Origin: Bacteroidales bacterium
Lineage (GTDB): Bacteria; Bacteroidota; Bacteroidia; Bacteroidales; UBA932
Assembly: GCA_016282145.1 (NCBI GenBank)
Contig: JAEEJZ010000079.1
Location: forward strand, 7,327 to 71,326
Length of the DNA stretch: 64,000 nucleotides
Direction: 5' to 3'
This document shows, one piece after another, positions 8,599 through 25,890 of this stretch. The translations under genes and the position numbers were made by a program. Under the pieces are notes generated by a model. That model was not told the DNA's origin, searched no databases, and saw nothing but the letters and a program-made list of their open reading frames with translations. The first letter of the stretch is position 1. Each line of letters begins with the position of its first letter.

Positions 8599-8599
8599 A

Positions 8600-8613
8600 T
8601 GTGCCCGAACACA
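8600..8613. promoter_or_regulatory. Degenerate (11/14) copy of the island palindrome, TGTGCCCGAACACA; possible weak LacI-type operator
   Basis: Compared by eye with TGTGTGCGCACACA at 20042 and 23247. It lies between the -7-like box (8614..8621) and the LamG start codon (8598). Confidence 0.35.
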
Positions 8614-8621
8614 CAAATATA
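8614..8621 (-). promoter_or_regulatory. Bacteroidota -7-type promoter box TATATTTG (minus strand) for the LamG gene
   Basis: The plus strand reads CAAATATA, a match to the TAnnTTTG consensus. It sits 15 nt upstream of the ATG at 8598. Confidence 0.45.
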
Positions 8622-8653
8622 GCAAAATATTTCCTTAAATCCATCTGAAAAAC

Positions 8654-8661
8654 TATATTTG
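8654..8661 (+). promoter_or_regulatory. Bacteroidota -7-type promoter box TATATTTG for the MBL hydrolase gene
   Basis: Exact TAnnTTTG match, 7 nt upstream of the ATG at 8669. It mirrors the box at 8614..8621. Confidence 0.5.
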
Positions 8662-8668
8662 TCCTGTT

Positions 8669-9949
8669 ATGGATAGACGAGATTTCATCAAAACCTCGCT
8701 GCTGGGCGGGGCAGCACTGTGCCTGACCGACTGGGAAAAAGCCTTTGCCATGGGACGCGACGACATCCAGGTCGGCAAAGCCTGGCAGGGCTGGAAAGAA
8801 GGCCAGTTCCAGATTCATTTCATCTATACTGGCGTCGCCGAATCGATGTTCCTCATCTTCCCGGACGGGACCACGATGCTGCTGGACTGCGGCGACTTCG
8901 ACGCGCTCGCCCGGGGCGAAAAGGCCGTTCCCCTGCTGCCCAGTGCGCAACGGCACGCCGGCGAATGGATCGCACGCTACGTCACGCGGGTCAATCCGGC
9001 CGTCACGGACGTGGATTACATGCTGCTCACCCACTACCATAACGACCACGCCGGCAGCGACCGCTTCTACGCGGAAAAAATCATCCGGGACGGGGAAGAA
9101 TACGCGCTCAGCGGCTTCTCGCAGGCGGCGGAGACGCTGAATTTCCGCAAAGCCATCGACCGCTGCTATCCGGATGCCGATGAGGTCCTGCAATATGCCG
9201 ATGCCGAAACCGTCGGCCATATGCAACGCTTCTACCGCTATATGCAGCGGCACCGCGGGCTGGAGATCGAAAAGTTCCGCCTCGGGGCCAGCGACCAGAT
9301 TGTCCAGTTGCACCATCCGTCGAAATACCCCCAGTTCCGCGTACGGAACATTTGCGGGGGCGGCTGCATCGCCGCCGAGGACGGCAGTATCACCGACCTT
9401 TTCGCAGCGCGGAAGGCCGCGGGCAAAGCGGTCAAGAGCGAAAATGCGATGTCCCTGGGCATGGTTTTCAGTTACGGGGACTTCCGCTTCTACACGGCCG
9501 GGGACTTCTCCGCCCGCTTCAAGGACCCTGACGGGACGCCGCGCTTCATCGAGGACGACATCGCCCGCGTCTGCGGCCCCGCCCACGTGGCCAAGGTCAA
9601 CCATCACGGTCACAACTCGATGAGCCGTGCCCTGGTCTCCGCCCTGCGCAGCCGGGTCTGGGTCAGTTGCGTCTGGGACCAGTTGCACAACCTGCCGCCC
9701 TGTATGGAACTGCTTTCCGACCGCAGCCTCTACCCCAGCGACCGTATCATCTGCCCCACCATCATGCCGGCGGAACGCCGTGCCAAGGACGGCGACGCCG
9801 CCTGGATGAAAGACATAGCCCGCCCCTCGTATGAGGGCGGGCATGTCGTCGTAAACGTCGAGAAGGGCGGCGGACGCTACTCAGTTTCCTACCTTTCTGC
9901 GCAGGATGAGTCTATGACCGTCCGCAGCGTCCTTCATTTCAAGGTCTGA
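8669..9949 (+). CDS. Tat-signal metallo-beta-lactamase-fold hydrolase, ComEC/COG2333-like subtype (candidate periplasmic nuclease or phosphodiesterase)
   Basis: 426-aa ORF. The twin-arginine motif is MDRRDFIKTSLLGGAAL. MBL motifs are LLDCGD, LLTHYHNDHAGS and a late AKVNHHGHNS, which resembles the HHGS motif of ComEC-type MBL domains. Confidence 0.75.
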   Translation: MDRRDFIKTSLLGGAALCLTDWEKAFAMGRDDIQVGKAWQGWKEGQFQIHFIYTGVAESMFLIFPDGTTMLLDCGDFDALARGEKAVPLLPSAQRHAGEWIARYVTRVNPAVTDVDYMLLTHYHNDHAGSDRFYAEKIIRDGEEYALSGFSQAAETLNFRKAIDRCYPDADEVLQYADAETVGHMQRFYRYMQRHRGLEIEKFRLGASDQIVQLHHPSKYPQFRVRNICGGGCIAAEDGSITDLFAARKAAGKAVKSENAMSLGMVFSYGDFRFYTAGDFSARFKDPDGTPRFIEDDIARVCGPAHVAKVNHHGHNSMSRALVSALRSRVWVSCVWDQLHNLPPCMELLSDRSLYPSDRIICPTIMPAERRAKDGDAAWMKDIARPSYEGGHVVVNVEKGGGRYSVSYLSAQDESMTVRSVLHFKV

Positions 9950-11956: not shown

Positions 11957-11978
11957 AAAGGAAGGATTAAAGGGTTGT

Positions 11979-12965
11979 TTATTTTTTATCCGTATAAGCG
12001 AAATCCGTCAGTACCGGATAATGGTCGGAAATATAGAAAATTCCATAATTCCTTTTATCAACGGTATAAGTCAGCGCCTTGAGCGGGCCGCTGAAGAAGA
12101 TATGGTCGATCAGACCGCCGCTCTTCCCATAACCGTTATCCGTATTCATGTCCCGGGAACTGGATTTTTCCGCATCCAGCCGGGCATAGCCCAGCGGGAA
12201 TTTGATCAGCATCTGCAACGCGTCGGTATCCGAATTCGTATTGAAGTCCCCGATCAGGAAGACGGGATCCTTGCATCCCGGGCCCAGGACTCCACCGATC
12301 ATTCCGGGAATCCGGCTCAGGTGCAGGTTGCTTTCCATAATCCGCAGGTCCCCGGCATTGGGGCAGTTCTTGTTGTTCTGGAAATGCGTGTTGAACAGCC
12401 ACACCGGCCGGCCGAGCTGTTCCTTGTCGGCCAGCTTGAGCCAGGAGGTAATCCAGGGATGCGTGGTATGCCAGGAGCCATAATCGTTGGACTTGTTCTT
12501 GACCGAGACCTGATCCGGCGTATCGCTGTGCCAGAAGGTCCCCTTGTCTGCCAGGTCGAAACGGGACTTCTTGTAGAGTATCGTCTTTGAAGTTTCGTCC
12601 GTGCTCGTTTTCAGGATATCCTTTCCCGTCTCGCGGCCGATGCCGTAAAGGCCGTACTCGTCCTTCACCTTGGAGAGGATATACTCCGCCTGCACCCGTT
12701 CCACCTCCTGCATTCCGATGATATCCGGCTTGCGGGTAAGGATGAACTTGCAGACCGCATCCTTCCGGTTGTCCCAGATATAGTCCCCGTCAGCGGGTTC
12801 GGGATAACGGATATTGAAGGTGCAGATCAAAAGGTCCGCCGTTTCGACCGGCGGGGTCGGCGTCGGATCGTCTCCCTTTTCCCCGCAAGCGCAGAATACG
12901 CCGAGGGAAAGGGCCAGGACCGCCGTCAGAAAGCATTTATTGGATGACATATACTTTTTCATCAA
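11979..12965 (-). CDS. Endonuclease/exonuclease/phosphatase (EEP) family lipoprotein
   Basis: 328-aa ORF with lipoprotein signal ...LGVFCACGEKGDD. EEP motifs are TFNIRY, GMQEV, NTHF, IGDFNT, IDHIF and SDHYPV. Confidence 0.85.
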   Translation of the reverse strand: MMKKYMSSNKCFLTAVLALSLGVFCACGEKGDDPTPTPPVETADLLICTFNIRYPEPADGDYIWDNRKDAVCKFILTRKPDIIGMQEVERVQAEYILSKVKDEYGLYGIGRETGKDILKTSTDETSKTILYKKSRFDLADKGTFWHSDTPDQVSVKNKSNDYGSWHTTHPWITSWLKLADKEQLGRPVWLFNTHFQNNKNCPNAGDLRIMESNLHLSRIPGMIGGVLGPGCKDPVFLIGDFNTNSDTDALQMLIKFPLGYARLDAEKSSSRDMNTDNGYGKSGGLIDHIFFSGPLKALTYTVDKRNYGIFYISDHYPVLTDFAYTDKK

Positions 12966-12975
12966 CTGAGATTGA

Positions 12976-14796
12976 TTAGTAGGAGAGTCCGTCGGGCCAG
13001 TTGGGATTCTGAAGCAGAGCGTGATTCATCACCCGCTCATTGGTCGGGATGGGATAGAGATAATCCCTTTCTGGATCCAGGGAAATCGTATAGGTAGGAT
13101 TAGGATTCACATAACCCTTCGTGCCCTCCGTAAGGGTGATGTCAGTGCCGATCTTATAGACGAAAGTCGCGTCCGAAGAAGGCTTGGAACCGGTATAGAG
13201 GCAGATGTCCGCCTTGCCGTCCTTGTCCCAGTCATATTCGCCCGGGCCGGGGAAATACATACCGTACAGGCCCTGAAGGATACGTCCATAGGAAGCCCAG
13301 CGGAGAAGGTCAGCATAGCGCAGTCCTTCCATGGCCAGTTCCACCACCCGCTCGCGGCGGATTTCCAGAATCACCCCCTTGTTCTCCCCGGTCACATTGG
13401 GATAACCGGTAGCCTCGGAAGTCAGATAAGGATCCGGCGTACGGTTGGCAGCATTCATATCCAGATCAGGCATACCGGCGCGCCTGCGCAGCAGGTTCAC
13501 GCTTTTGTCCAGGTCGGCCTGCTTGAGCGTTCCCAGTTCCGCCTTTGCCTCGGCGAAGATCAGGTACACCTCCGCGATACGGATGACCGGCATATCGTTG
13601 TAGGAATTGCTGCGGATGTTGTTCATCACCATATTGTCGGAAGGCATGACGAACTTATTGATGGAATAACCCGTCAGGGAAACGTCCATATCGCAGAAAG
13701 AAGCCCGGTTGGTCGTCAGTTTGGTATAACTGTAGCCGGGAATCCGGATGGTCTGGTGAAGCCGGGGATCCCTCCCCTTCACCTGCTCCTCAAAGGTCTT
13801 CGTGCTCCAGCCCTCCACGGAAGAATAGCGTTTCCCGTCGGCCATCAGGTAATGGTCGATGAAGCCGCGCGTAGGGCTGTTGCGGCCACAGACCGACAGC
13901 AGGGCCACACCGCTGGCATCGTGCGTACAGGTGAAACCGTAATCATAATCGATGGCCAGGATGTATTCCTTGGGATCCGCATCGTACTGGGCAAAGAGGT
14001 TCTGGTAGTCATAGTCCGGATGCCCCGTAGAATAGAGGGAATGCGGTCCCAGGTCAATCAGTTCTTCGGCAGCCTCGGCGGCCAATTGCAGATAATACTC
14101 CGGAGGATTGGCATCCACGGGCAGGGTCCAGAGCGTGATGTCCCCCGCGTGATACTTGCGGAAAGTGCCTTCAAACAGGCAGAAACGCGCCTTGAGGGCA
14201 AGCGCCGCCCATTTCGTAGCCCGGTAGGTCTTGCCGTTCGCGTACGAGGACGGAAGTCCGGCGATAGCCTCGTCGATATCCTCGATCATCCGCGCCATCA
14301 CATAGTCGCGGTTGTCACGGGGATGATACAGGGCCTCCTTTTCGTCAGAGGCAAGTTCGTGGTCAATCCAGGGGACATCCCCGAAGCGCTGCACCTTGTC
14401 AAAATAGAACCAGGCCCGGAAGAACTTGCAGAGGGCATTATACTCCTTGACAGCCGCCTCGTCCTTGCAACGGTAGAGGTTTCCCAGGCAGGTATTGATT
14501 TTGCGCAGGGTTGTCCAGGACCAGCCGCCACCGGAGGCGGGGACGGTACGGAAGGAACTGTTCGTCAGCAGGTTACTGAGCCTCGTCGCGACCATGAGGT
14601 CACTCTGCTCATCGTAAGGGACATCGGGGAGGATGGAAGAATAGAACGAGTTGGTGAACAACTGGAGTTGCGTCGCCGTCTCGAAGTACGCCTCCTCGGT
14701 AATACTATCCAGCGGATATTTGTTCAGGGCATCATCGCAGGCAGCCAGAAACATCCAGGCAGCCAGGAGAGTGACTATGCGGTAAATCTTTTTCAT
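12976..14796 (-). CDS. susD: SusD/RagB-family outer-membrane lipoprotein
   Basis: 606-aa ORF with lipobox FLAAC-DD and a TPR-like SusD N-terminus (NKYPLDSITEEAYFET). It lies immediately downstream of the SusC-like gene. Confidence 0.9.
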   Translation of the reverse strand: MKKIYRIVTLLAAWMFLAACDDALNKYPLDSITEEAYFETATQLQLFTNSFYSSILPDVPYDEQSDLMVATRLSNLLTNSSFRTVPASGGGWSWTTLRKINTCLGNLYRCKDEAAVKEYNALCKFFRAWFYFDKVQRFGDVPWIDHELASDEKEALYHPRDNRDYVMARMIEDIDEAIAGLPSSYANGKTYRATKWAALALKARFCLFEGTFRKYHAGDITLWTLPVDANPPEYYLQLAAEAAEELIDLGPHSLYSTGHPDYDYQNLFAQYDADPKEYILAIDYDYGFTCTHDASGVALLSVCGRNSPTRGFIDHYLMADGKRYSSVEGWSTKTFEEQVKGRDPRLHQTIRIPGYSYTKLTTNRASFCDMDVSLTGYSINKFVMPSDNMVMNNIRSNSYNDMPVIRIAEVYLIFAEAKAELGTLKQADLDKSVNLLRRRAGMPDLDMNAANRTPDPYLTSEATGYPNVTGENKGVILEIRRERVVELAMEGLRYADLLRWASYGRILQGLYGMYFPGPGEYDWDKDGKADICLYTGSKPSSDATFVYKIGTDITLTEGTKGYVNPNPTYTISLDPERDYLYPIPTNERVMNHALLQNPNWPDGLSY

Positions 14797-14808
14797 ATCT
14801 TCACAAAA

Positions 14809-17800
14809 TTAGAACTGGATATCCACACCGAACATAAAACTTTTCTGCCAGGGATAGAAGGAGCGGCCGTAGCTTTCGGAATCGTCGTGCTCCATCGCTT
14901 CCGGATCCAGATAAGAGCAATGATCGAACAGCGGCGACCAGCAGGCCAGGTTCTCTCCGGTGAAATACACCCTGATCTTTTCGAGTTTGATCTTCCGGGT
15001 GAGGTTCTGGGGAATGGTATAACCTACCGTCACATTCTTGACACGCAGATAACGGCAGTTCTGCAGATAGCGGGTATTGGTCCTGTTCAGGGTACCGCCG
15101 CTGATTTCTGCGATATAACCGCGTGCCCGGGGGAAGTAGGCATCGGTATTGTTATAATCCCACACGTCCTTCAGGAAATCGCGACGCATAAAACTCTGCA
15201 TCGGATTGGAATAGGGCCCCCAGAAGGGGAAGCACCAACGCGGAGGATACCAGTAATGGTCGCCGGTACCCTGGAAGAAGACGCTGGCGTCAAAACCGTA
15301 CCAGTCCACGGAGAAAGTAGCACCGTATGACAGGCTGGGCAGGGAGTTACCGAGTATCCTGCGGTCACCCGGATCATCCACGGTATTCGCGCCGATGCCG
15401 ATGGTACCGTCACCGTCCAGGTCCTCGTATTTGAGGTCACCTGCGCTCCAGCCATAGCCCATACCGGCGGTAACGTAACTGAGGTCCACTGCCTCCGCGT
15501 AGTCCATCGCCTCGATGTCATTCGCAAACAGCTTATCTGCCTTGAAGCCCCAGATTTCACCCAGGCGCTTGCCGACATAATAGTCGCTCAGCAACTTGTT
15601 GGGATTGTTATCGTACTTCGTGATGTAGGAGTCGTAGTTACTGAGGTTGAAAGAGACGCCGTAGCCGAACGGGCTGCCGGCCAGACGGAACTGGTCTTTC
15701 CAGCTGACGGACAGTTCATAGCCGCGGGTGCGCAGGTTGGCTGAATTCTGCTTCGGGGAGGACGCGCCGTACACTGCAGGCAGCGCTTCTCCCGACACCA
15801 GCATTCCCAGGGTGTTACGGATGTAGGCCTCTCCGGTAAACTGGAGGCGGTCCTTGAAAAATCCTGCGTCAAGGCCCAGGTTATACTGCTGCACGGTCTC
15901 CCAACTAAGGTCTCCGGCATTCGGGGCGGAGATGGAGGCAGAACGGGCCAGAGCTCCTTCCCCGAACATATAATCGGCATTATCCACCGAAATCTTACGG
16001 AGATAGGCGTAGTTGCTGACGACCTGGTTGCCCAGCGAACTGAACGAGAACCTGACTTTCAGGTTGTTCATCACATCCTTCGCCGGAGCGAAGAAGGGTT
16101 CCTCGCTGATGCGCCAGCCTGCGGAAGCCGAAGGGAAGAATCCCCAGCGATGTCCTCTGGCAAAGCGGGAAGAACCGTCATAACGGCCGGAGACTTCCAG
16201 CAGGTAGCGGCCTTTATAGTCGTAATTAAACCTCCCGAAGAAGCCCAGCAGGGCATACTCGCTCTGCCAGCCGTCAATGTATTGTTTGGACGAACCGTCC
16301 GCCGCGGTTCCCGCCAGCGAAAGGTCGCTGAGTTTATCGGAAATCAGGTTATAGGCAATGGCCTCCAGATACTGGCTGTATTGCGTTTCCCAGTTGCCGC
16401 CGAGCACGGCGGTGACGTGGTGTCCGTCAAAGTTATCCTCATAGGTGGCAAAGACATTGGCTGACATATAGGAGTAATTCCAGGTCTTTTCATCCAACTG
16501 GTTGGTCCCCACACCGTCCGACTTGGTGATGGGCTCTTCGTCAGGATACATCTTATACTGGAAACTCGTCATACGGGCGGTAGTATGGTCACGCCTTTTG
16601 CGGAAGGTAAAGTTACCGGTCAGCCTCAGCTGTTTGATCGGGGTAATGTTGATTTCCGTCGTATTGGCAAACTCATTCTTCCGTTCGATGTGCCGGTCCT
16701 TGTTCTCGCTGAACTTGATGTGCGCCGCATTCGCGACCGCATAACTGCTCGTAAAGTACTGCGAATAATAGACCCAGGAGCCATCCGGATTCTGGAACGG
16801 AAAAATCGGGAGGGCGTGGGCAGCGAGATGGGTAAAGGTACGGTCCACATTCGACATCGTAGTCGCAGGATAGTTATACTTCTGGTCGTAGTAGGAGGTA
16901 TTGTTGGAGATGCTCATCCACTTGGTGACATTCGCCTCGAACCGGGCCCTGAGCTGATACTTGTCCAGATAATCGGGATTGATATTGATGATACCCTGCC
17001 TATGGTCCCACAGGCCGGAAATGAAGTATTTGAAATTCTTCCCGCCGCCGGTCACCGACAGGCTCTGCTGGTGCAAGGGGTTACGGTCCGTGAAGAGTTT
17101 GTGGTACCAGTCGTTGTTCCCATAGTACTTCCACTGTTTGACCCCGCCTACGGTCTCCTCCACCACCCAGGGACGGGCCGGATTCTCCGTTACGTCATTG
17201 ACGCGGGCCAGCAGTTCGTTCATATCGTTGTCATTGTACTTGAGATACTTGTCCCCCGGATAACGCGCATCCCAGAACTTGTTGATGGTATAGACGCTCC
17301 AATAGCCCCGGGTTTCAAAGTCGGTACTGGTGGTCGGTTCCTGCCAGCCCCAGCGGCCGCTGTAGCGGATGGTGGCCTTCCCTTCCGCCGCAGAACCGGA
17401 CTTGGTGGTCACGAGGATGACACCGAAGGCGGCACGGGCGCCATAGACGGCTGCAGCCGCACCGTCCTTGATGACGGAGATGCTTTCCACATCATTGGGG
17501 TTCACCCTGCTGAGGTCGCCCTCGGCTCCGTCGATCAAGACCATCGGGCTGGCGCCGTTGATGGAGGTATAGCCTCGGATGTTGATATCCGGAGCTTCGT
17601 TCATAACGGCCGACGAAGCGACGATGTTCAGGCCCGGGACGGCGCCCTGAAGCATACTGGTGACATTGGCGGCGGTACGGTTCTGCAGGTCATCGCCCTT
17701 CACCGCCGTGATGGCGCCGGTCAGGTTCACCTTCTTCTGGGTACCATAACCCACGACCACCGTCTCTTCGAGCATCAGGTTGTCGTTCTCAAGCACCAGG

Positions 17801-18084
17801 TCCACGGTCGCCCTGCCGGCAGGGACCTTCACAGAAGCGGAAGTATAACCCAGGCAGGAGACCTCCAATGTAACCTCATCGGTACTAACGCCGCCGAGGG
17901 TCCATTTACCGTCGATGTTGGTGACTGTCCCTCCTTTTGCGCCCTTAATCACGATACCGGCGCCGGGGATGCCCTCCCCTGTGGTATCGGTGACTCTTCC
18001 GGACAGCGTTCGCTGAGCCAGCGCCACCAGGCTGGCTGCTCCGAACAGGAACAGCGTTAAACCGATTTTTTGGAATGTATTCAT
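14809..18084 (-). CDS. susC: SusC/RagA-family TonB-dependent transporter
   Basis: 1091-aa ORF with a signal peptide, a carboxypeptidase-regulatory-like domain (GRVTDTTGEGIPGAGIVIKG), a plug region (VVVGYGTQKKVNLTGAI) and a C-terminal ...FGVDIQF. There is no N-terminal STN or anti-sigma domain. Confidence 0.93.
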   Translation of the reverse strand: MNTFQKIGLTLFLFGAASLVALAQRTLSGRVTDTTGEGIPGAGIVIKGAKGGTVTNIDGKWTLGGVSTDEVTLEVSCLGYTSASVKVPAGRATVDLVLENDNLMLEETVVVGYGTQKKVNLTGAITAVKGDDLQNRTAANVTSMLQGAVPGLNIVASSAVMNEAPDINIRGYTSINGASPMVLIDGAEGDLSRVNPNDVESISVIKDGAAAAVYGARAAFGVILVTTKSGSAAEGKATIRYSGRWGWQEPTTSTDFETRGYWSVYTINKFWDARYPGDKYLKYNDNDMNELLARVNDVTENPARPWVVEETVGGVKQWKYYGNNDWYHKLFTDRNPLHQQSLSVTGGGKNFKYFISGLWDHRQGIININPDYLDKYQLRARFEANVTKWMSISNNTSYYDQKYNYPATTMSNVDRTFTHLAAHALPIFPFQNPDGSWVYYSQYFTSSYAVANAAHIKFSENKDRHIERKNEFANTTEINITPIKQLRLTGNFTFRKRRDHTTARMTSFQYKMYPDEEPITKSDGVGTNQLDEKTWNYSYMSANVFATYEDNFDGHHVTAVLGGNWETQYSQYLEAIAYNLISDKLSDLSLAGTAADGSSKQYIDGWQSEYALLGFFGRFNYDYKGRYLLEVSGRYDGSSRFARGHRWGFFPSASAGWRISEEPFFAPAKDVMNNLKVRFSFSSLGNQVVSNYAYLRKISVDNADYMFGEGALARSASISAPNAGDLSWETVQQYNLGLDAGFFKDRLQFTGEAYIRNTLGMLVSGEALPAVYGASSPKQNSANLRTRGYELSVSWKDQFRLAGSPFGYGVSFNLSNYDSYITKYDNNPNKLLSDYYVGKRLGEIWGFKADKLFANDIEAMDYAEAVDLSYVTAGMGYGWSAGDLKYEDLDGDGTIGIGANTVDDPGDRRILGNSLPSLSYGATFSVDWYGFDASVFFQGTGDHYWYPPRWCFPFWGPYSNPMQSFMRRDFLKDVWDYNNTDAYFPRARGYIAEISGGTLNRTNTRYLQNCRYLRVKNVTVGYTIPQNLTRKIKLEKIRVYFTGENLACWSPLFDHCSYLDPEAMEHDDSESYGRSFYPWQKSFMFGVDIQF

Positions 18085-18104
18085 AAATTGGGGGTTAATG
18101 ACGA

Positions 18105-18299
18105 TTAAAAATAAATGATGCCCTGGTCATCTTCCGACATGCCTTCCAGCCCCGGGGTGTCCGGCCCTTCCGTTTCACCCGTCTGCGGGACCATGTCCTG
18201 CGTGACGACCCCGGTGTGGACCATACCCTCCTTTGCCTCGCAGCCGGAAAACAGCAGCGCGAGGCTCAGGATAACGATGAGGGGCAGGGGTTTCATCAT
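18105..18299 (-). CDS. 64-aa acidic, Pro/Gly-rich lipoprotein of unknown function
   Basis: MMKPLPLIVILSLALLFSGC-EAKEG... has a classic lipobox. Its start overlaps the upstream EEP gene stop (ATGA), and it ends 20 nt upstream of susC. Coding status is supported by the signal peptide and the coupling, not by homology. Confidence 0.55.
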   Translation of the reverse strand: MMKPLPLIVILSLALLFSGCEAKEGMVHTGVVTQDMVPQTGETEGPDTPGLEGMSEDDQGIIYF

Positions 18300-20023
18300 T
18301 GATAATCAAACACCAGTGTAGCCGTAATGGGCCAGTGGTCAGAAATGTATTGTACACTGGAATAAGTACGGTAGTCCGTCCCGAACGTACCTGCCTTTAG
18401 GCCATGCTTGCTGTTTTCGTAACAGTAACGGTAAAAAATATGGTCGAGGTTGGAACGGTTGCCGCTGCAAGTACCGCTGCTGTAGATGGTGGAAAAGCCG
18501 GAACAGCTCGTATCGAAACCGTTATAACTCGTCGGGTAGGACGTCTTGCTGGTCTTGCCGTCCTGATTGCGGGCAAAATAGTAGTTGGACCATCGGCTGT
18601 CCCCTTTCTCCGGATTGCAGATGTCGGTCGCGGACTCATTGAGGTCTCCGGTCACGATCATCGGCAGGTGCTCGGAATTAATCGCTTCCAGCTGGTCATA
18701 CAGAACGACGGCCTCAGCAAGGCGGGCGGCATAGGCCTCATCCGTATAATGGGCCGTAAAGTGGGTATTGACGAAATAGAACACATAGCCGTTCTCCTTC
18801 CAGCGGAACTTGATCCACGAGCAGCAGTGACCGTCATCGGAACCCACTGACGAGGGATTGTTCGAAAGCCAGAAGGTTCCCTTGTCGATAATGTCGAACT
18901 TGCTCGTCTTGTAGAAGATGGCATTGGAGGAGTCTGTGTTATAATCTTTCTTGTTCCACCAGGAACCGCTGGAACCGCTGGATTCCTTACCATAATCTTC
19001 GCCCAGGCCGTAGGCCGCATAACCGGAAGTATTGTCAAGGATATTCACCCGCTGACGGTATTCGCACTCCTGGGTACCGATGATATCGGGACTCATCTCA
19101 TTGAAGAAGGCATAGATGCCCGGTTTGCGGACACTCCAGTAATGGCTGCTGTCCCAGCCGCTGTTGTCGTCATTCTTCTGACAGGCGACATTGAAGGACC
19201 AGACCGTCAGTTCCGGACGGGTGCTCAGGCTGGGCGGCGGCATCAATCCGGACAGGGTGGTAATCTGGGAACGGGTGATGGTAAAGGGCGTGCTCACCGA
19301 TTTGGTGGCATAGTTCCCGTTCTCCATATTGGCCCGGATAGTCATCCCGTCATACTCCCCTGCCGGCAGCACGAAGTAGAACTCCAGGGGCACCGTTTCG
19401 TCCAGTTCCAGATTCGGGGGACAGTTCATTGTCACCTTCCGGTTCTCCGCGGAACTGCCCGTCATGGTCAGGGTATTCCCCCCGCGGGCCACGTTTCCCG
19501 GTCCGCTGACGCTGGAAGCAAAAAGAAGTTCCAGGCTGCTCACGTCAATGGTTCCGGTCAGACGGAGCCGAAGTACGCCGCAGAGGTTCTTCATCGAGAA
19601 GGCGGAGATGTCATTGGAGGTGGCAGAAAGCATGGGATTGGAGCCGGGGGCGAAAGTCCCCTCGGTATATTCCACTTCAGCAGGCAGGGTAAAGGTGAAG
19701 GTACTCGCGCCGTTGTAGGTCGCGCTAGGCGGATAAACGGCAAAGAACGTGTCTCCGGCCGGAATCGGCCCATAGAAATTGCCGACGGAAGTGCCTTCCC
19801 CGCTGCTCAGGACAAATGTTTTGCCACTGGCGTCCGAGGTAGAGAACACCTTCATCTTGTCTCCGCGGCACCAAATGACGCTGTTTCCGTCAAGGGCTGT
19901 CTTGGAAGTCTCCTCTCCGTACACCGTAATCTCGGCATACTCCGCTACCTGGGCCTCCTCCTTGCTACAGGAAAAGAGCAGGGCAAGGAGAGCAGGCGCA
20001 AGGAATTTAACGCTAATTTTCAT
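18296..20023 (-). CDS. Surface lipoprotein: fimbrillin-like N-terminal module fused to a C-terminal EEP domain
   Basis: ORF 18296..20056. The ATG at 20023 gives MKISVKFLAPALLALLFSC-SKEE. The N-terminal module carries SKTALDGNSVIWCRGDKMKVF, the pattern seen in Bacteroidales fimbrillin-like lipoproteins. C-terminal EEP motifs are SFNVAC, GTQEC, NTHFT, TGDLNE, LDHIFY and SDHWPI. Confidence 0.8.
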   Translation of the reverse strand: MKISVKFLAPALLALLFSCSKEEAQVAEYAEITVYGEETSKTALDGNSVIWCRGDKMKVFSTSDASGKTFVLSSGEGTSVGNFYGPIPAGDTFFAVYPPSATYNGASTFTFTLPAEVEYTEGTFAPGSNPMLSATSNDISAFSMKNLCGVLRLRLTGTIDVSSLELLFASSVSGPGNVARGGNTLTMTGSSAENRKVTMNCPPNLELDETVPLEFYFVLPAGEYDGMTIRANMENGNYATKSVSTPFTITRSQITTLSGLMPPPSLSTRPELTVWSFNVACQKNDDNSGWDSSHYWSVRKPGIYAFFNEMSPDIIGTQECEYRQRVNILDNTSGYAAYGLGEDYGKESSGSSGSWWNKKDYNTDSSNAIFYKTSKFDIIDKGTFWLSNNPSSVGSDDGHCCSWIKFRWKENGYVFYFVNTHFTAHYTDEAYAARLAEAVVLYDQLEAINSEHLPMIVTGDLNESATDICNPEKGDSRWSNYYFARNQDGKTSKTSYPTSYNGFDTSCSGFSTIYSSGTCSGNRSNLDHIFYRYCYENSKHGLKAGTFGTDYRTYSSVQYISDHWPITATLVFDYQ

Positions 20024-20041
20024 CTTCTTGTGTTTTAAAAA

Positions 20042-20055
20042 TGTGTGCGCACACA
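20042..20055. promoter_or_regulatory. Perfect 14-bp palindrome TGTGTGCGCACACA; candidate LacI-family operator at the susCD-operon promoter
   Basis: Self-complementary with a central CG. The 18-mer AAATGTGTGCGCACACAC is identical at 20039..20056 and 23244..23261. It lies between the -7 box (20062..20069) and the ATG at 20023. Confidence 0.6.
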
Positions 20056-20061
20056 CAATTG

Positions 20062-20069
20062 CAAATATA
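20062..20069 (-). promoter_or_regulatory. -7-type promoter box TATATTTG (minus strand) for the EEP-susC-susD operon
   Basis: The plus strand reads CAAATATA. It sits 6 nt upstream (in the transcription sense) of the palindrome, so the expected start site falls in or next to the operator. Confidence 0.5.
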
Positions 20070-20119
20070 GAATATTTGCCTGAATTATCAAAATAATTTT
20101 AACGGGGTATTTTAACAAA

Positions 20120-20148
20120 CTCCCGGCAGGGATCGGACCTGCCGGGAG
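20120..20148 (-). terminator. Intrinsic terminator after the 947-aa GLUG gene
   Basis: Perfect 11-bp stem CTCCCGGCAGG / CCTGCCGGGAG with a 7-nt loop. On the minus strand it is followed by TTTGTTAAAAT. It sits 26 nt past the stop at 20174. Confidence 0.5.
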
Positions 20149-20173
20149 CCTGAAAAAAAGCGCTAAAACTTCC

Positions 20174-23017
20174 CTACTCGATGCCTGACACAGCCGGAGT
20201 GGACAGGACAAAGTTAAAGTCAACCTTGGAAGCGTCGCTGGTGCCGCTGGTAGCATCGTAAAGGGAACTTGAAGCTCCCATCAGCCACTTGCAGGCCTTC
20301 GCTGTCGTAGTGATTGTTTCGCTGCTGCCCGGCACATCCGCGAACTCAATGCGGCAATTGTTGACAATCAGAATCGGATTCGACGCGGTACCGAAGACCA
20401 ATTTATAAGAAGTACTGCTGGTACTGAAGGTCTTGCCGGCGATGAGCGCCGTCCAGTCGGAACAATTATCAGCATTCGTCTTGTTACTGATCGTACAAGC
20501 CACCACACAGTCCGTGACATTGTCGGTCACGTCACTGGTAGGAGCTTCAACACGGCCGAACAGACCAGCCATATAATAGTCTTTTTTCTGATAACTGGTC
20601 ACCGTAGAACTCGGCGTATTGCCGGAACCACCAGAATAGAAATTACCGCTGGTGATCAGGCCGGTACTCGTGCACCCACGCACCTCCGTGTCAGAGGGGT
20701 AGAATCTCGCAAGGATACCGCCTGTGATGGACGAGCCCGTCGTGTTATATGGACCAAGGTATCCGTTGTTCGTGCAGTTCAGCACCCTCGTGGGCTTATA
20801 GCTACTACTATAGCCTCCGCAGATGCCACCGATATAGGTTGTAAGATTGCCAGCCCAGGTGAAGATATATCCGTTGTTGGTGCAATTGAGTATGCTTCCC
20901 TTGGAGTTTCCGCAGATACCGCCTGCATTGAAGTCCTTCTTCACATTCTGCCCGGACGGGTCGCTTACCAAGCGGCCGTTGTTGATGCTGTATTCCACGG
21001 TACCGCTCGATGTCATATAGCCGACTATGCCACCGAACCAGGTCTCATGATCATGCTTTTTGTAGTGGAAAATTTCGCCGCTGTTGGTATTGGGGGTGCC
21101 ATCCTCCGCTTGGGTCAAAACCAGATTCGAAGAAGTCCCCGCACCCAGGATTCCTCCCATCGAAAGGTCGGAATTGACCACGGCATTGTCGTAAACCTTG
21201 CCTGTGTTCGAACAGCCCCGCACCGTACACTTATAGATGATAGTACCTATAACTCCTCCATAAGCCTGACGGTGATCGCTGACTGTTTCAGCTCCGAGAC
21301 AGATCTGGCCTTCGTTGAAACATTTGTCAATATAGTTGTTGGTGTTGTTGTTCTTACCGAACCTGCCGAGAACGCCACCGACGGCGACGGCCTTGTCCCA
21401 GTTGTTGGTCCCGCTCGTCACGGATGCCGCGGCGTTGGTGACGTTGGCGTGGTTGCTGCATTCCTCCATTCTGAAAGATTGGCAGGTAGCCTTGCCCATA
21501 ATGCCACCGATGCAGGAAACACCCACGCAGTTGTTGGTCACGACACCATAGTTCTCGCAGCCCGAAACGGTGAGCCCTTGGGAATCGTTCCAGCCCACAA
21601 CGCCACCCATCGCAGAATCCTGCGTGGTCGCGCAAGTCGAGTTGTCGGTAACGGGAGCCCGGTTGACGCAGTTCTCCAAAGTCACGTTCTCATTGGTCAT
21701 ACCGACGATTCCTCCAAACGCATGCTTGGTAGTAACGGCAGAGGATACGGAAACGGGAACGAAGTTCGTAACGTTCTGAATCGTGCTGTTACGGTGAGCA
21801 TAGCCCACAATACCCGCATACAGCCAAGCATCGGAGCTTGACTTTGTCATGGTTATAGAACTCGAGCCGTCGGCCGTGGTGCCGTTAGAAGAGCCAAAGA
21901 CAGTATTCTTAAGGACCGCCGCATATCCATTCGATGACCCGAGGGTACTGATGAACCCAAGCCTGTTACTGGAAGCATCCTCTACGGTGAAATTATAAAT
22001 CTTATGGTTCTGTCCATTGAAAATGCCTACAAATTCCGAAACCGGCGTCCAGGCATATCCGCCCAGATTGATATCCGCACCGAGTTTCACCTCATCGCCT
22101 TCACCATAAGCCCCGGCCTCTGCCAGGCGGCGCCACATCTTGAGCTGGGCGGCCGTCATAATGGTCGAAGGGCACCAGGTACTCTTATTGTCAATCTCAC
22201 CCAGGTTGGCACCGCCATTCCGTTCATAAGTCACGGACTCGGATGTATTCAGCATCGTCTTGCTGCCGTCTTCGAGGGTCAGGATCAATCTGTATCCGGC
22301 CGTGAATGCCTTAGGCCAGATAACCATAAAATAATCCCCGGCGGGGAAAGCCGCAGGATCCTCCCCGTCCTTGCAGACCAGAGTCACCTGTACTCCTTCA
22401 GCACTGGAATAATCCATCCGCGGAGCACCTTCCCCAGCGTAGATGAAATGGCTGGTACCGCAGATCACCTCGCTGTTGTTCCCCTTGAGTTGGACAGAGA
22501 CTACATCGCTGCGGGTCAGGGAAACCTTGACGACGGCGAACTGATTCTGGAAATAAAAGGAACCGGTACCGGAATCCTCCGCCGTAGAGACCAGGGCGTC
22601 GGAAGACACGCAACGGCCCAGCTGGACCGTCTGGGTTCCGGGAATCTTGACACCAATCCAGGATTCCGCCGGCTTATAATTATTGACGACCCCATAAGGC
22701 GCAACGGCTAAATAATTTGACACTTCCGCGGCAGAGCCGGAGAAAGACGCAGTCTGCTTGCCCTCGGAACCGGGGGCGATGTCAAATTGGTTTTTGGATG
22801 TTCCATCAAAGACGGCAATGGCGTCCCCGTCGTTCCAAACAAAAGAAGAGCCGCTGATATTGGCCTTGGAATCTTCCGCTGCGGCGGTAAAGGTCATAGG
22901 AACCTTAACCGTCTCACCCCCATCGATGGGGTCAGTATCCGGAGCAAGCTCCTTGTTACAGGAAAGGATGGCAAAGGAAGCAAGGCCCAGCGCAAGAATG
23001 GAAAAATACTTTTTCAT
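20174..23017 (-). CDS. Large surface lipoprotein: fimbrillin-like N-terminal module plus a GLUG-type repeat beta-helix
   Basis: ORF 20174..23068. The ATG at 23017 gives MKKYFSILALGLASFAILSC-NKE. The N-terminal module (DSKANISGSSFVWNDGDAIAVF) parallels that of the 18296..20023 protein. It is followed by FVGIFNGQNHKIYNF and about 10 repeats of C-x-N-x-G ... GG[IV]xG. Confidence 0.72.
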   Translation of the reverse strand: MKKYFSILALGLASFAILSCNKELAPDTDPIDGGETVKVPMTFTAAAEDSKANISGSSFVWNDGDAIAVFDGTSKNQFDIAPGSEGKQTASFSGSAAEVSNYLAVAPYGVVNNYKPAESWIGVKIPGTQTVQLGRCVSSDALVSTAEDSGTGSFYFQNQFAVVKVSLTRSDVVSVQLKGNNSEVICGTSHFIYAGEGAPRMDYSSAEGVQVTLVCKDGEDPAAFPAGDYFMVIWPKAFTAGYRLILTLEDGSKTMLNTSESVTYERNGGANLGEIDNKSTWCPSTIMTAAQLKMWRRLAEAGAYGEGDEVKLGADINLGGYAWTPVSEFVGIFNGQNHKIYNFTVEDASSNRLGFISTLGSSNGYAAVLKNTVFGSSNGTTADGSSSITMTKSSSDAWLYAGIVGYAHRNSTIQNVTNFVPVSVSSAVTTKHAFGGIVGMTNENVTLENCVNRAPVTDNSTCATTQDSAMGGVVGWNDSQGLTVSGCENYGVVTNNCVGVSCIGGIMGKATCQSFRMEECSNHANVTNAAASVTSGTNNWDKAVAVGGVLGRFGKNNNTNNYIDKCFNEGQICLGAETVSDHRQAYGGVIGTIIYKCTVRGCSNTGKVYDNAVVNSDLSMGGILGAGTSSNLVLTQAEDGTPNTNSGEIFHYKKHDHETWFGGIVGYMTSSGTVEYSINNGRLVSDPSGQNVKKDFNAGGICGNSKGSILNCTNNGYIFTWAGNLTTYIGGICGGYSSSYKPTRVLNCTNNGYLGPYNTTGSSITGGILARFYPSDTEVRGCTSTGLITSGNFYSGGSGNTPSSTVTSYQKKDYYMAGLFGRVEAPTSDVTDNVTDCVVACTISNKTNADNCSDWTALIAGKTFSTSSTSYKLVFGTASNPILIVNNCRIEFADVPGSSETITTTAKACKWLMGASSSLYDATSGTSDASKVDFNFVLSTPAVSGIE

Positions 23018-23246
23018 AGCTGTAATCTGGTTAAGGTTAATCTTCCGCATCCCATACGGGTGCACCATCTAAATCCGTCAGGTCCTCTCTGCCGGACCCG
23101 AAAGAATCGCACAAGACACGCTTGAACGATGCTTCAATTGGAAAAGCGTTCGGGGCGGAATACTTTCCCCTCTCACTGAGATGAAGTCTGATTTTATTCA
23201 TATAATATATATTAAGTTATTATCGTCGATTCCCTTTTTCCGTAAA

Positions 23247-23260
23247 TGTGTGCGCACACA
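23247..23260. promoter_or_regulatory. Second perfect copy of the palindrome TGTGTGCGCACACA; candidate LacI-family operator
   Basis: Identical 18-mer context to 20039..20056. It lies in the 308-nt gap between the lacI-like stop (23326) and the GLUG gene start (23017). Confidence 0.6.
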
Positions 23261-23325
23261 CTTATCCATATAATCTTGTCGCAATATTACGACATATTTT
23301 TTAAACCGCCAAATTTTTTGGATTT

Positions 23326-24393
23326 TCAGACCTCGTCGTGCCAGTAAGGCAGGCTCTCGCGAAAGACGATATCGATGGGAAGATACTCCCGTAAGGTCTT
23401 GTCCGGAGCACCGTAGAGAAGGAAATGCAGGATGGATTCCACGGAATAGAAGCCCTGCCTCTCCGGATGCTGGTTGATCAGGAAATCCAGGGTCCCCTCC
23501 TCCACGCAGCGGGCATTGCCCTCGGTCACGTCAAAACCGCCCACCACCAGGTTTCCCTTTCCGCCGGAAAGCGCATCGGAAATCAGATACCCTGCCGAGA
23601 TGACCACGGCTACGCCGCCGACGCCCGGATGCCCCGCCAGGAAAGCACGGATATCGGCATGGCTCTTGACCGGATTATCTATGGAGAAGTAGCCCTCCAC
23701 GACATCCCGGTTCCGCTTTCCTTCGCTGAAGAAGGACTTGAAAGACGCCATCCGGACAGCCGAGTTATTGGACATCTGCGTACCGATACGCCGGGGCAGG
23801 AGCAGGGCCAGTTTCCTTCCGGAGGGCGTGAGTCCGTCCATCAGGTGAGCAAGGAGCCGGCCGCAGGCCTCCTGGTCTGCAAGATAGGCGGCTACCGGAT
23901 GAGTCTCCGCCACTTTACCGTCCAGGAACACATAGGGAATCTCCCTGGAATCCAGCACGTTGCAGAGTTCCCGGGTCTCGTCCACAAAGGTGGTACCCAG
24001 GATGACGGCCGAGCAGCTCAGGGAAGCCACGGTATGGAAGGCATCCCGGCAGGAAAGGGAGTTAAACTGGTCGAAGAACACGAACTTGCTCTTGATGGAG
24101 ATGTCTCCATATTCCACAAAGGCTTTTTCCACACCCTTGCGCACCAGGTCCCAGTACTCGCCCTTCTCAGAAAAGGGAATCGCCACCACGATCTTGAACG
24201 ATTTCCGGGTCTTCTTGAAGGCCACAGCAGAAGTGTGCAGATTGTAATTGTAAGACTGTGATTCCAACACGGACTGGACAGCAGCCAGCGCCTCCGGAGA
24301 GACCTTTCCACGGTTGTGCAAGACACGGTCAACCGTCCCCGCCGACACGCCTGACAGGGCTGCAATCTGCTTTATGGTAAGTTGTCCGGGCAT
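23326..24393 (-). CDS. LacI/PurR-family transcriptional regulator
   Basis: This is the C-terminal part of the 885-aa read-through ORF 23326..25983. The ATG at 24393 gives MPGQLTIKQIAALSGVSAGTVDRVLHNRGKVS, the LacI helix-turn-helix, followed by a periplasmic-binding-fold sensor domain. The ATG at 24432 (MKKNPYIVRNFER...) is an alternative start. Confidence 0.88.
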   Translation of the reverse strand: MPGQLTIKQIAALSGVSAGTVDRVLHNRGKVSPEALAAVQSVLESQSYNYNLHTSAVAFKKTRKSFKIVVAIPFSEKGEYWDLVRKGVEKAFVEYGDISIKSKFVFFDQFNSLSCRDAFHTVASLSCSAVILGTTFVDETRELCNVLDSREIPYVFLDGKVAETHPVAAYLADQEACGRLLAHLMDGLTPSGRKLALLLPRRIGTQMSNNSAVRMASFKSFFSEGKRNRDVVEGYFSIDNPVKSHADIRAFLAGHPGVGGVAVVISAGYLISDALSGGKGNLVVGGFDVTEGNARCVEEGTLDFLINQHPERQGFYSVESILHFLLYGAPDKTLREYLPIDIVFRESLPYWHDEV

Positions 24394-24431
24394 ACGCTCA
24401 AAATTCCGCACAATATACGGATTTTTTTTCA

Positions 24432-24439
24432 TACCTTTG
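24432..24439 (+). promoter_or_regulatory. Candidate -7-type box TACCTTTG for ftsA-ftsZ
   Basis: Matches TAnnTTTG, 32 nt upstream of the ftsA ATG (24472) and preceded by a T8 tract. It overlaps the alternative lacI start codon on the other strand. Confidence 0.4.
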
Positions 24440-24471
24440 TTAGCTGTCCACGGACTATTTTCACTAACTAT

Positions 24472-25890
24472 ATGCAGGAAAGATACATAACCGCCATCGA
24501 CTTGGGTTCGAGCAAGATCGCTTTGAGTGTAGCCAAGCTCTCCGGACGCGACATCCAGGTCATCTATTACGACGAATGCCCCTCCGACGGCATCCGCTAC
24601 GGAAGCGTTTTCAATCCCAAGAAAGCGTCGATTCCCGTCGGCGAAGCCATCCGCAAGGCCGAGGATGAACTCGGCATCCGCATCCGCCAGGTAGTAACGG
24701 GACTCCCCCGCTACCGCGTGCGCCAGGAGATGAGCCCGGCCAAGGCGATGCGGCCCAACCCGGAAAGCTGCATCACGCGCGAGGAAATCGAGGCCATCAA
24801 GAATGCGGCCATCGACACCTATCCCATCGAGGACGAGACCCGCGAGGTGCTCTACGGCGCCATCAACCAGTCCTTCTCTACCGAGGACCTTATCCAGGCC
24901 TGCGAGGAGGACGTCATCGGCTGCACCGGCGACTTCGTGGAAGGCAATTTCAAACTCTATGTCGGGGACAGGCGGCCTTTGTCGAACCTGGAAAAACTCT
25001 TCGCCGAGCTGGACGTCACCCTGGCCGGCCGCTACTTCATGCCGGAAGTGACCGCGGACGCGGTACTGACCGAGGAGCAGAAGGAGAACGGCGTAGCCCT
25101 CATAGAAATCGGCGGCGGCGTCACTTCCCTGACCATCTATGCGGACAATATCCTGCGCCATTTCAGTTCCCTGCCCTTCGGCGGAAAGAGCGTGACCGCG
25201 GACATCAAGGCCGAGAGCGGCTTTCGCGAGAAACTCTGCGAGAACATCAAACTCGCCTTCGGCAACTGTCAGCCCGACCGCCTGGCCAATATGGCGGAAA
25301 AGGTCATCCAGGTCAACAACAACGAGACCGGCAGTTCCCGCCAGCTCAAGGTATATGACCTCGCCGAGATTGTCGGCGCCCGTATGGAGGAAATTATGGA
25401 TGCGGTGCTCTGGCAGATCGAGGAGAGCGGTTATGCCGACCGCCTGCGCACCGGCATCGTGCTGACCGGCGGCGGCGCGGACCTGACCGGGCTGGTGCCG
25501 ATGATGCGCGAACGCTCGGGCCGCTATGTCGAACTGGGCTTCCCGCGCCGGCATTTCTTCTCGGCGAGCGGCTTCCCTTCGATGCTGCAGACCGGAGCCG
25601 TCGCTTCGGCGGGCCTGCTGCTGCGTGCTGCGGCCGATCCTTACCTCAACTGCATCGAGATGCCGCCCGTCCAGGAAAAACCCTTCGAAGAAGAAGCGGA
25701 AGAAGAACCCACGCTGGTCCTGACCGCCCCCACGGATGAACCGGTCAAACCCAAACCCGCCAAGCCGAAGCCCGCCAGGCCGAAGGCGGATAAGGCGGAG
25801 CAAAAGCCCAATCTCATCTGGGGCAGCATCAAGCGGCTGACCGGCACGCTCTTCGACGGCATAGGTGGAACTTTTGAAGAAATCAACTGA
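24472..25890 (+). CDS. ftsA: Cell division protein FtsA
   Basis: ORF 24382..25890. The ATG at 24472 gives MQERYITAIDLGSSKIALSVA, an actin-like ATPase N-terminus. A Lys/Pro-rich linker and a C-terminal amphipathic tail (LIWGSIKRLTGTLFDGIGGTFEEIN) follow. Confidence 0.92.
   Translation: MQERYITAIDLGSSKIALSVAKLSGRDIQVIYYDECPSDGIRYGSVFNPKKASIPVGEAIRKAEDELGIRIRQVVTGLPRYRVRQEMSPAKAMRPNPESCITREEIEAIKNAAIDTYPIEDETREVLYGAINQSFSTEDLIQACEEDVIGCTGDFVEGNFKLYVGDRRPLSNLEKLFAELDVTLAGRYFMPEVTADAVLTEEQKENGVALIEIGGGVTSLTIYADNILRHFSSLPFGGKSVTADIKAESGFREKLCENIKLAFGNCQPDRLANMAEKVIQVNNNETGSSRQLKVYDLAEIVGARMEEIMDAVLWQIEESGYADRLRTGIVLTGGGADLTGLVPMMRERSGRYVELGFPRRHFFSASGFPSMLQTGAVASAGLLLRAAADPYLNCIEMPPVQEKPFEEEAEEEPTLVLTAPTDEPVKPKPAKPKPARPKADKAEQKPNLIWGSIKRLTGTLFDGIGGTFEEIN

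Follow-up and report, generated by a model that had tools for sequence, protein, structure and literature searches.

The perfect 14-bp palindrome TGTGTGCGCACACA, located at positions 20042..20055 of the 64-kb window (the whole stretch of 64,000 nucleotides that was analysed, from a rumen Bacteroidales bacterium), is predicted with good confidence to be the operator of the adjacent LacI-family repressor (23326..24393), which would act by promoter occlusion. A preliminary description had read this element as a LacI operator of an EEP-susC-susD operon. The comparison across related loci supports this reading through the recurrence of the motif, its co-occurrence with the regulator gene and its coupling to the -7 box.

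The palindrome and the promoter of the susC/susD operon

On the minus strand, the elements are arranged in the order TTTG (20092..20089), 19 nt, TATATTTG (20069..20062), caattg, TGTGTGCGCACACA (20055..20042), 18 nt and ATG (20023). Direct reading confirmed that the palindrome is exactly self-complementary, with its centre at C20049/G20048, and the distances given in the preliminary description are correct: 6 nt separate it from the -7 box and 18 nt from the ATG at 20023. This predicted operator, referred to here as O1, carries the central CG and obtained the top score with the position weight matrix (PWM; 26.1 bits). The TATATTTG box (20062..20069, minus strand), 6 nt upstream of O1, is a -7 box of a Bacteroidota primary sigma factor promoter, and the TTTG at 20089..20092 (minus strand), 19 nt upstream of the box, is the -33 element. 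The Bacteroidota promoter consensus, as cited in PMC7366714, combines a -33 TTTG with a -7 TAnnTTTG. The O1 promoter shows the pattern of the primary sigma factor, with TAnnTTTG, a TTTG about 19-21 nt upstream and a short distance to the gene, and its 19-nt spacing between the -33 and -7 elements is also present in L016 and L005. The earlier placement of the palindrome directly downstream of a canonical -33/-7 pair, in front of an EEP-susC-susD operon, therefore held when the sequence and the Pfam domains were read.

The list of open reading frames gives a GTG start at 20056, which would render the palindrome coding. This start was rejected, as the lipoprotein signal peptide MKISVKFLAPALLALLFSC begins at ATG 20023 and the orthologue in L016 agrees, its start codon following the local copy of the site after 14 nt; the palindrome is thus non-coding. 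Further upstream, a strong GC-rich hairpin followed by TTTGTT (20116..20152, minus strand) was found by folding and probably terminates the transcription of the lipoprotein gene upstream; the 81-nt stretch with this terminator-like hairpin folds with -38.1 kcal/mol (z = -5.4). With such a hairpin upstream, the O1 promoter would form an independent transcription unit. Transcription in Bacteroides starts a few nucleotides after the -7 box, and the +1 of the O1 promoter is predicted at about 20055-20058, where the palindrome begins on its upstream side. The 5' UTR predicted from this start would be about 32 nt long, the median length reported for B. thetaiotaomicron (PMC7366714).

The promoter is followed by six genes on the minus strand. 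The first encodes a lipoprotein with a C-terminal endonuclease/exonuclease/phosphatase (EEP) domain (18296..20023) and is followed by a 64-aa small lipoprotein ORF (18105..18299), whose start overlaps the EEP stop (ATGA) and which is called as a gene in L021 and L022. Next are a susC-like TonB-dependent transporter with Plug, TonB_dep_Rec and CarboxypepD_reg domains (14809..18084), a susD-like gene with a SusD_RagB domain (12976..14796), a second EEP-family gene (11979..12965) and, as the last gene, a surface protein with BACON and GLUG domains assigned by Pfam (9950..11956). Because the intergenic gaps across the EEP-to-BACON unit measure just 10-22 nt, these genes very probably constitute one operon, and all six are very probably driven by the palindrome-bearing promoter. 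Beyond the operon lie a metallo-beta-lactamase-fold gene with an MDRRDF start on the plus strand (8669..9949) and a ConA-like gene on the minus strand (6628..8598).

The adjacent susC-like and susD-like genes correspond to the core of a Sus-like PUL, and no glycoside hydrolase or lyase domains were found in the operon that would represent the associated carbohydrate-active enzymes of a PUL. Both EEP proteins resemble PDB 4c1r, a mannosyl-6-phosphatase. No Pfam or NCBIfam families were found for the 64-aa lipoprotein, for the 947-aa lipoprotein located upstream of O1, or for the small peptides encoded near it.

The regulator and the recurrence of the associated motif

The LacI-family gene, previously placed 3.3 kb upstream on the same strand, was confirmed at 23326..24393 (minus strand). 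It encodes a protein of 355 aa with an N-terminal HTH_LacI domain (PF00356, residues about 6-49, 34 bits against a cutoff of 27) and a periplasmic-binding-protein-like, sugar-binding domain (PF13407, Peripla_BP_4, E = 2.2e-20). The sugar-binding domain also matches PDB 3gbv, deposited as a putative LacI-family regulator (E = 6.8e-32, residues 63-354). The best NCBIfam matches (RbsR, GalR, TreR and GntR) reached 29-49 bits against cutoffs of 357-557. An exact-sequence look-up returned no identical database sequence for the window LacI, and P0001, a relative with 97% identity, was used as a substitute query. All members of the clade, from 40% to 100% identity, share an unchanged recognition helix region, GVSxGTVDRxLHxRG, which agrees with the conserved TGTGT/ACACA arms of the motif. 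An even palindrome with a central CG is a hallmark of LacI-family motifs, observed for 1173 of the 1303 regulators analysed in PMC4052901, and the motif described here fits this hallmark, as it is likewise even and keeps its central CG almost without exception.

In the PWM scan, for which the matrix was derived from the sites of relatives and the threshold set at 9 bits, only three sites were detected in the 64 kb, plus one match 2 nt out of register over the first site. All three are located inside the lacI-bearing block between ftsQ and ftsA. Matches to TGTGTGCGCACACA with up to three mismatches were limited to 23247..23260, an identical palindrome designated O2, and 8600..8613, with no other non-overlapping match in the window. 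The TAnnTTTG box is more common: 12 copies would be expected in the window and 19 are present, several of which shortly precede long ORFs.

With the LacI protein as query, 19 orthologue loci with 62-72% identity and a single paralogue locus (31%) were obtained from rumen Bacteroidales MAGs, and further relatives with 97%, 82-83%, 56%, 52%, 44% and 42% identity were taken in. In the window and loci L001-L035, which together comprise 433 kb, TGTGTnCGnACACA with at most one mismatch occurs 60 times, against 0.45 +/- 0.74 expected from Markov simulations. The motif was found in 18 of the 19 orthologue loci of the first retrieval and in every further orthologue locus, and it accompanies lacI orthologues of 52-100% identity, including the 97%, 82-83% and 52-56% relatives. 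The 31% paralogue locus (L019) had no site, and one orthologue locus (L020) had none within the stretch examined.

The sites are located at gene boundaries, including the intergenic region that separates lacI from a divergently oriented SDR gene, the position just downstream of lacI, and the regions upstream of susC, EEP, GLUG-lipoprotein and fn3/PAP-like genes. Among the 36 unique sites, 12 positions carry about 1.6-1.8 bits each, and the central C/G is present in 70 of the 72 half-site counts. The flanks are unrelated between loci, and the 14-bp core is nearly invariant. The target genes also vary (GLUG lipoproteins, fn3/PAP-like proteins, susCD, EEP, the SDR operon, uxuB-like and uxuA), so that the constant neighbour of the sites is the regulator gene and not the targets. 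By the standard comparative criterion, the motif can be assigned to the regulator because the targets vary while the regulator stays. The anatomy of the sequence, the recurrence of the motif, its co-occurrence with the regulator and its positional coupling to -7 boxes are all directly seen, and the expectation that the motif tracks the regulator orthologues was borne out over dozens of rumen Bacteroidales contigs with differing flanks and targets.

The same conservation was observed at closer range. The contigs of the same species (L021, L022 and L030) retain both O1 and O2 while nearby bases differ; in L021, one substitution falls inside the -7 box and the sites are unchanged. In L031 and L033, whose LacI proteins share 82-83% identity with that of the window, O2 is retained despite diverged flanks. 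The EEP-susC promoter of L016 presents the O1 layout, with TTTG, 19 nt, TATCTTTG, 6 nt, the operator, 14 nt and ATG, the last gap measuring 18 nt in the window. The O1 sequence itself is unchanged in this promoter.

Most relatives carry a site in the lacI-SDR intergenic region, unlike the window, where the lacI promoter (24394..24471) revealed no credible site by PWM or by reading and only the degenerate, half-site-like ATTGTGCGGAAT. Autoregulation, described for 72% of LacI-family regulators (PMC4052901), is therefore not supported in this genome.

The more distant relatives (42-44% identity, UxuR-like) share the core of the motif, with T/A in place of G/C at positions 6 and 9. These relatives are encoded beside uxuB-like/uxuA, GH2 and kduI genes, carry TGTGT[T/A]CG[T/A]ACACA sites and have the same recognition helix as the window regulator. 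The sites in the window could accordingly be the operators of a paralogous LacI-family regulator encoded elsewhere, for example a UxuR- or KdgR-like protein, instead of or besides the adjacent one, and several such paralogues have been reported in B. thetaiotaomicron (PMC3878776, PMC4052901). This alternative is improbable, however, given that positions 6 and 9 differ by clade, with G/C here and T/A beside the UxuR-like genes. In the clade of the window regulator, these positions are G/C in 49 of the 72 counts, as in both O1 and O2, and the G/C-type sites follow its orthologue group in more than 25 loci whatever the targets.

The placement of the sites relative to the promoter elements was also consistent. 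In the window and L001-L020, a strict TAnnTTTG box ends between -2 and +10 nt upstream of the site in 27 of 40 cases. In the SDR promoters, the -7 box overlaps the first two operator bases, and in the susC, EEP and lipoprotein promoters, the gap between box and operator is 3-10 nt. In three loci, the proximal operator lies 25 nt downstream of the box, with a second operator on the upstream side of the box. This placement bears on the possibility that a LacI-family protein activates from the site, or that the site serves another factor such as a global Crp-like regulator, which we consider very unlikely as a whole. In most promoters, the operator lies downstream of or overlaps the -7 box, a position incompatible with classical activation, and activation by the regulator from O1 is unlikely for this reason. 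A CRP-type site was rejected as well: the CRP consensus has the spacing TGTGA-N6-TCACA, and here TGTG and CACA are 6 nt apart. A precedent for activation is found in RusR, a PUL-adjacent regulator that is not of the LacI type and is needed for activation of the Bacteroides ribose system (10.1101/574913). A Crp-like palindromic motif also exists in Bacteroides, but the motif reported, TATGTTnTAnAACATA, differs from the palindrome (PMC3878776), and no further regulator gene is conserved near the sites.

The palindrome might also work as RNA, either as a 5'-UTR hairpin or as a small terminator or attenuator (a hairpin followed by UUUUU). The terminator scan flagged 20057..20042 plus TTTTTAAAAC as terminator-like (this output was kept, and the sigma-70 promoter scan was disregarded as uninformative for Bacteroidota), and the element is probably located at the 5' end of the transcript. 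The reading as an RNA hairpin or terminator was nevertheless rejected and is hardly plausible, because the hairpin, with -6.5 kcal/mol, is weak and does not stand out from shuffled sequences (z = -0.05), the T-run after the motif is not conserved among relatives, some copies are located upstream of the -7 box, where they would be untranscribed (L001 7116, L003 5060 and L016 7073), and no Rfam match was found at E <=1.

The window contains ten perfect 14-bp palindromes, where first-order Markov simulations predict 5.3 +/- 1.8, and a single one is not statistically significant here. That this palindrome, an alternation of purines and pyrimidines, is a functionless chance product of alternating TG/CA simple sequence is nonetheless the least credible of the alternatives and can practically be dismissed, given the exact duplicate in the window, the 60 sites observed against 0.45 expected over the loci, and the conservation of the site amid diverged flanks.

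Proposed repression mechanism and additional predicted operators

With the palindrome taken as the operator of the adjacent LacI-family protein, we infer from sequence the binding by this regulator, the repression, the start of transcription and the class of effector. When no inducer is present, a repressor dimer would bind to TGTGTGCGCACACA, beginning 6 nt past the -7 box. From this distance, the operator would span roughly +1 to +14 of the promoter of the six-gene operon. The bound dimer would occupy roughly -4 to +18 and, in the manner of lac O1, exclude RNA polymerase or block its escape from the promoter. Release of the repressor would come from a cytoplasmic metabolite formed from the imported substrate.

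The inducer is likely a sugar acid or a sugar phosphate, since relatives of the regulator adjoin an operon for an SDR, an Nramp-like transporter, a PfkB kinase and a 6-phosphogluconate dehydrogenase, and also uxuB-like and uxuA genes. In most relatives, lacI is divergent from the SDR operon, with the operator mostly located 11-13 nt before the SDR start codon. In some relatives, lacI is adjoined by uxuB-like and uxuA genes, and L002 presents uxuB-like, uxuA and lacI in tandem on one strand.

The predicted second operator, O2 (23247..23260), follows the lacI stop at a distance of 65 nt and precedes a small ORF by 45 nt, and it shares with O1 the 18-mer GTGTGTGCGCACACATTT (minus strand). An imperfect -7 box, TAATATTG (23282..23289, minus strand), with one mismatch to TAnnTTTG, was identified 21 nt upstream of O2, and a TTTG is present at 23310..23313, 20 nt upstream of this box. 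The stretch with the TAATATTG box is conserved in L021 and L022. Together, the box and the TTTG form a candidate promoter for the small-ORF/lipoprotein unit, predicted to be weaker than the O1 promoter. No strict TAnnTTTG box was found near O2, and the assignment of the promoter is weak for this reason. O2 may serve as a roadblock at about +15 to +30.

O2 would govern a unit composed of a small peptide gene and a gene for a GLUG-repeat lipoprotein. The first is a 54-aa ORF, MNKIRLHLSERGKYSAPNAFPIEASFKRVLCDSFGSGREDLTDLDGAPVWDAED (23037..23201, minus strand), which belongs to a small conserved peptide family and is called as a gene in L022. The second encodes the 947-aa lipoprotein with GLUG-like repeats (20174..23017, minus strand), with a probable start at ATG 23017 (MKKYFSILALGLASFAILSC).

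Genes for peptides of 45-55 aa with the pattern M..Y.SP.C...LLC.S...R..D.L.DA..DWD occur as single or tandem copies and always fall between the operator and the genes of big lipoproteins. This family is present in the window and in L010, L011, L013, L016 and L017, with a more divergent version in L001 and L002. A profile search with the small peptides returned 34 clusters, none of which contained a Pfam domain; where names were given, they were 'hypothetical protein'.

A probable third operator, TGTGCCCGAACACA, with a score of 17.3 bits, was identified at 8600..8613, directly next to a minus-strand TATATTTG box (8614..8621). It sits 1 nt upstream of ATG 8598, the start of the ConA-like protein gene (6628..8598), which it probably governs. 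This operator would be weaker than the other two, being asymmetric and known from the window alone.

Relation to known regulators and wider context

The arrangement proposed here resembles that of the classical repressor of E. coli, whose lac O1 is centred at +11. As predicted for the window, the E. coli system comprises a LacI/GalR-family repressor, a CG-centred even palindrome overlapping the transcription start, and auxiliary operators. The inner 14 bp of the ideal symmetric lac operator, TGTGAGCGCTCACA, differ from TGTGTGCGCACACA by one position per half-site. The window, in contrast, has a promoter of the Bacteroidota -33/-7 kind, the predicted targets encode uptake proteins of the outer membrane, and the regulator is distant from E. 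coli LacI, with its best NCBIfam scores far below the cutoffs. The cre sites of CcpA (e.g. TGTAAGCGCTTACA) are likewise 14-bp palindromes of the TGT..GCGC..ACA type with a central CG. CcpA, however, is a global regulator of Firmicutes that needs HPr-Ser-P as a co-repressor, whereas the window regulator would be local, and there is no taxonomic relation between the two.

Among the regulators of Bacteroides, the LacI-family members UxuR, UxaR, KdgR and UxmR have been predicted and their regulons reconstructed (PMC3878776, PMC4052901). UxaR, UxuR and KdgR constitute a taxon-specific branch of local regulators of sugar-acid catabolism in Bacteroidales (PMC3878776, PMC4052901). The 42-44% relatives of the window regulator resemble this predicted branch in their uxuB-like/uxuA, GH2 and kduI neighbours and in the TGTGT-CG-ACACA core. 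The published regulons of these four regulators consist mainly of cytoplasmic pathways, whereas the regulon predicted here includes large lipoproteins of the cell surface and a susC/susD operon. Bacteroides LacI regulons are named in the supplements of PMC3878776, which list no operator sequences for regulators such as BT1434, BT0487 and BT0824, and in the literature searched, no experimentally defined operator was found for LacI-type PUL regulators.

The closest experimentally characterised analogue of the mechanism proposed here is AusR of Zobellia galactanivorans, a GntR-family repressor of an alginate PUL whose binding was shown by EMSA (PMC7641319). AusR is likewise a cytoplasmic one-component repressor encoded in a PUL, with 1-3 operators overlapping or adjoining a TAnnTTTG box, and its inducers are catabolic intermediates, the type of inducer also proposed for the window regulator (PMC7641319). 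The two systems differ in that AusR belongs to the GntR/FadR family, recognizes another operator consensus and comes from another phylum branch, and in that the operator of the window is a prediction from sequence comparison.

LacI-type genes are listed among PUL regulators in PMC7641319, and next to rus-like PULs they rank second in prevalence among the regulator types (10.1101/574913). A LacI-type gene is also drawn with susC/susD in a Gramella forsetii locus (PMC4069401). In both of these cases, as in the window, the LacI-type gene adjoins susC/susD; the passages cited give the presence of the gene only, and the window adds a comparatively supported motif. The preliminary description rightly called LacI control of Sus-like operons less common, although precedents exist (PMC7641319, 10.1101/574913 and PMC4069401). 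With LacI regulators beside PULs and Bacteroides LacI regulons already described, the switch is of a known kind. The novelty, which is well supported at the level of predicted regulation, lies in a sharp operator motif, with a rule for its placement, that applies to a clade of uncultured rumen Bacteroidales, and in the extension of this motif to a susC/susD operon with phosphoesterases and without CAZymes.

It is conceivable, although doubtful at present, that this LacI clade joins the 6-phosphogluconate pathway (SDR, Nramp-like, PfkB and 6-phosphogluconate dehydrogenase) with a previously undescribed CAZyme-free surface uptake system in a mobile regulon, inserted here between ftsQ and ftsA. 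Such a system would comprise SusC/SusD, EEPs related to mannose-6-phosphatase, giant GLUG-repeat lipoproteins and the 45-55-aa peptides ending in DWD, and the regulon would then be dedicated to a phosphorylated or acidic glycan or to a non-glycan nutrient.

One-component cytoplasmic repressors of PULs are far less studied than hybrid two-component, SusR and ECF sigma/anti-sigma systems. For this type of repressor, the locus offers a sharp and testable motif, TGTGTgCGcACACA, with about 60 instances and a clear rule of placement relative to the -7 box. Its predicted regulon connects, in uncultured rumen Bacteroidales, the genes for uptake at the surface with a sugar-acid pathway of the cytoplasm. 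The results could be used to annotate regulons in rumen MAGs, to make a first guess of the substrate for PULs with phosphoesterases but without glycoside hydrolases, and to provide a compact repressor/operator part for genetic tools in Bacteroidota. The locus represents a solid but ordinary gene switch, and the understanding of gene regulation is unchanged by it.

Regarding the genomic setting, the block 6628..24393 is inserted between the ftsQ-like gene and ftsA of the murD-ftsW-murG-murC-ftsQ/ftsA-ftsZ cluster. In L032, whose FtsA shares 86% identity, murC, ftsQ and ftsA are contiguous, and the lacI-ftsA junction is common to L031 and L033. The G+C content is 0.51-0.56 across 10-24 kb of the window, against about 0.60 in the surrounding sequence.

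Gene content of the susC/susD operon

In the susC/susD operon (window 9950..20023), no recognisable glycoside hydrolase was found. The operon encodes two proteins of the endonuclease/exonuclease/phosphatase (EEP) family, for which a related structure is the mannosyl-6-phosphatase of B. thetaiotaomicron (4c1r), along with BACON/GLUG proteins, while additional giant proteins with fn3 / purple-acid-phosphatase-N-domain are encoded in related loci. Taken together, these features suggest that the substrate of the operon is phosphorylated. Between the EEP gene and susC, a 64-aa lipoprotein ORF (MMKPLPLIVILSLALLFSGC..., 18105..18299, minus strand) was observed, the start of which overlaps the EEP stop codon. 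This ORF received no family assignment, and a gene is called at the equivalent position in the related loci L021 and L022.

Genes associated with the predicted operator in the window and in relatives

A third operator-like site, TGTGCCCGAACACA, was identified at window 8600..8613. It is directly abutted by a minus-strand TATATTTG box (8614..8621), and the ATG of a gene for a 656-aa ConA/Laminin_G_3-like protein lies 1 nt downstream of the site, an arrangement implying an almost leaderless mRNA. The site also lies 55 nt from, and on the upstream side of, a divergent metallo-beta-lactamase (MBL)-fold gene, whose product begins MDRRDF.

Most relatives carry a conserved operon divergent from lacI, comprising an SDR, an Nramp-family transporter, a PfkB kinase and a 6-phosphogluconate dehydrogenase (L001 1402-5880, with equivalent positions in L002, L004-L009, L011-L013, L015-L018, L023, L024, L028 and L029). 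The Nramp-like protein is an unexpected member of a sugar-acid operon. In most of these loci, the operator is located 11-13 nt ahead of the SDR ATG and overlaps the SDR -7 box. The 64-kb window itself lacks this SDR operon. Among the orthologue loci, only L020 has no operator-like site in the 9 kb of its sequence that was covered; its LacI shares 64% identity with that of the window, and the gene next after lacI is GDSL-lipase-like and encoded on the other strand.

Furthermore, a conserved family of 45-55-aa ORFs, frequently in tandem pairs, was observed between the operator and large GLUG-repeat lipoprotein genes (window 23037..23201, minus strand; L010 1110-1460, L011 7117-7460, L013 2814-3040, L016 7128-7515 and L017 7139-7480). 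They share the pattern M..Y.SP.C...LLC.S...R..D.L.DA..DWD, and no signal peptide was apparent by eye. A profile search retrieved only 34 clusters, all devoid of Pfam domains and, where a source name was given, labelled 'hypothetical protein'.

Genomic setting

Three long minus-strand ORFs of 1129 aa (31401..34790), 607 aa (34774..36597) and 1075 aa (36611..39838) are located immediately downstream of a TATATTTG box at 39896..39903. Their sizes suggest a candidate second susC/susD-like cluster; no operator-like site is associated with them in the window.

The block 6628..24393 (ConA-like gene, MBL-fold gene, polysaccharide utilisation locus and lacI) is inserted in the dcw cell-division cluster, between an ftsQ-like gene and ftsA (region 5925..24472). 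In L032, a relative with 86% FtsA identity, murC-ftsQ-ftsA are contiguous, and the lacI-ftsA junction is common to the window, L031 and L033. The ftsA gene has its own TACCTTTG box (24432..24439), and G+C falls to 0.51-0.56 over window 10-24 kb.
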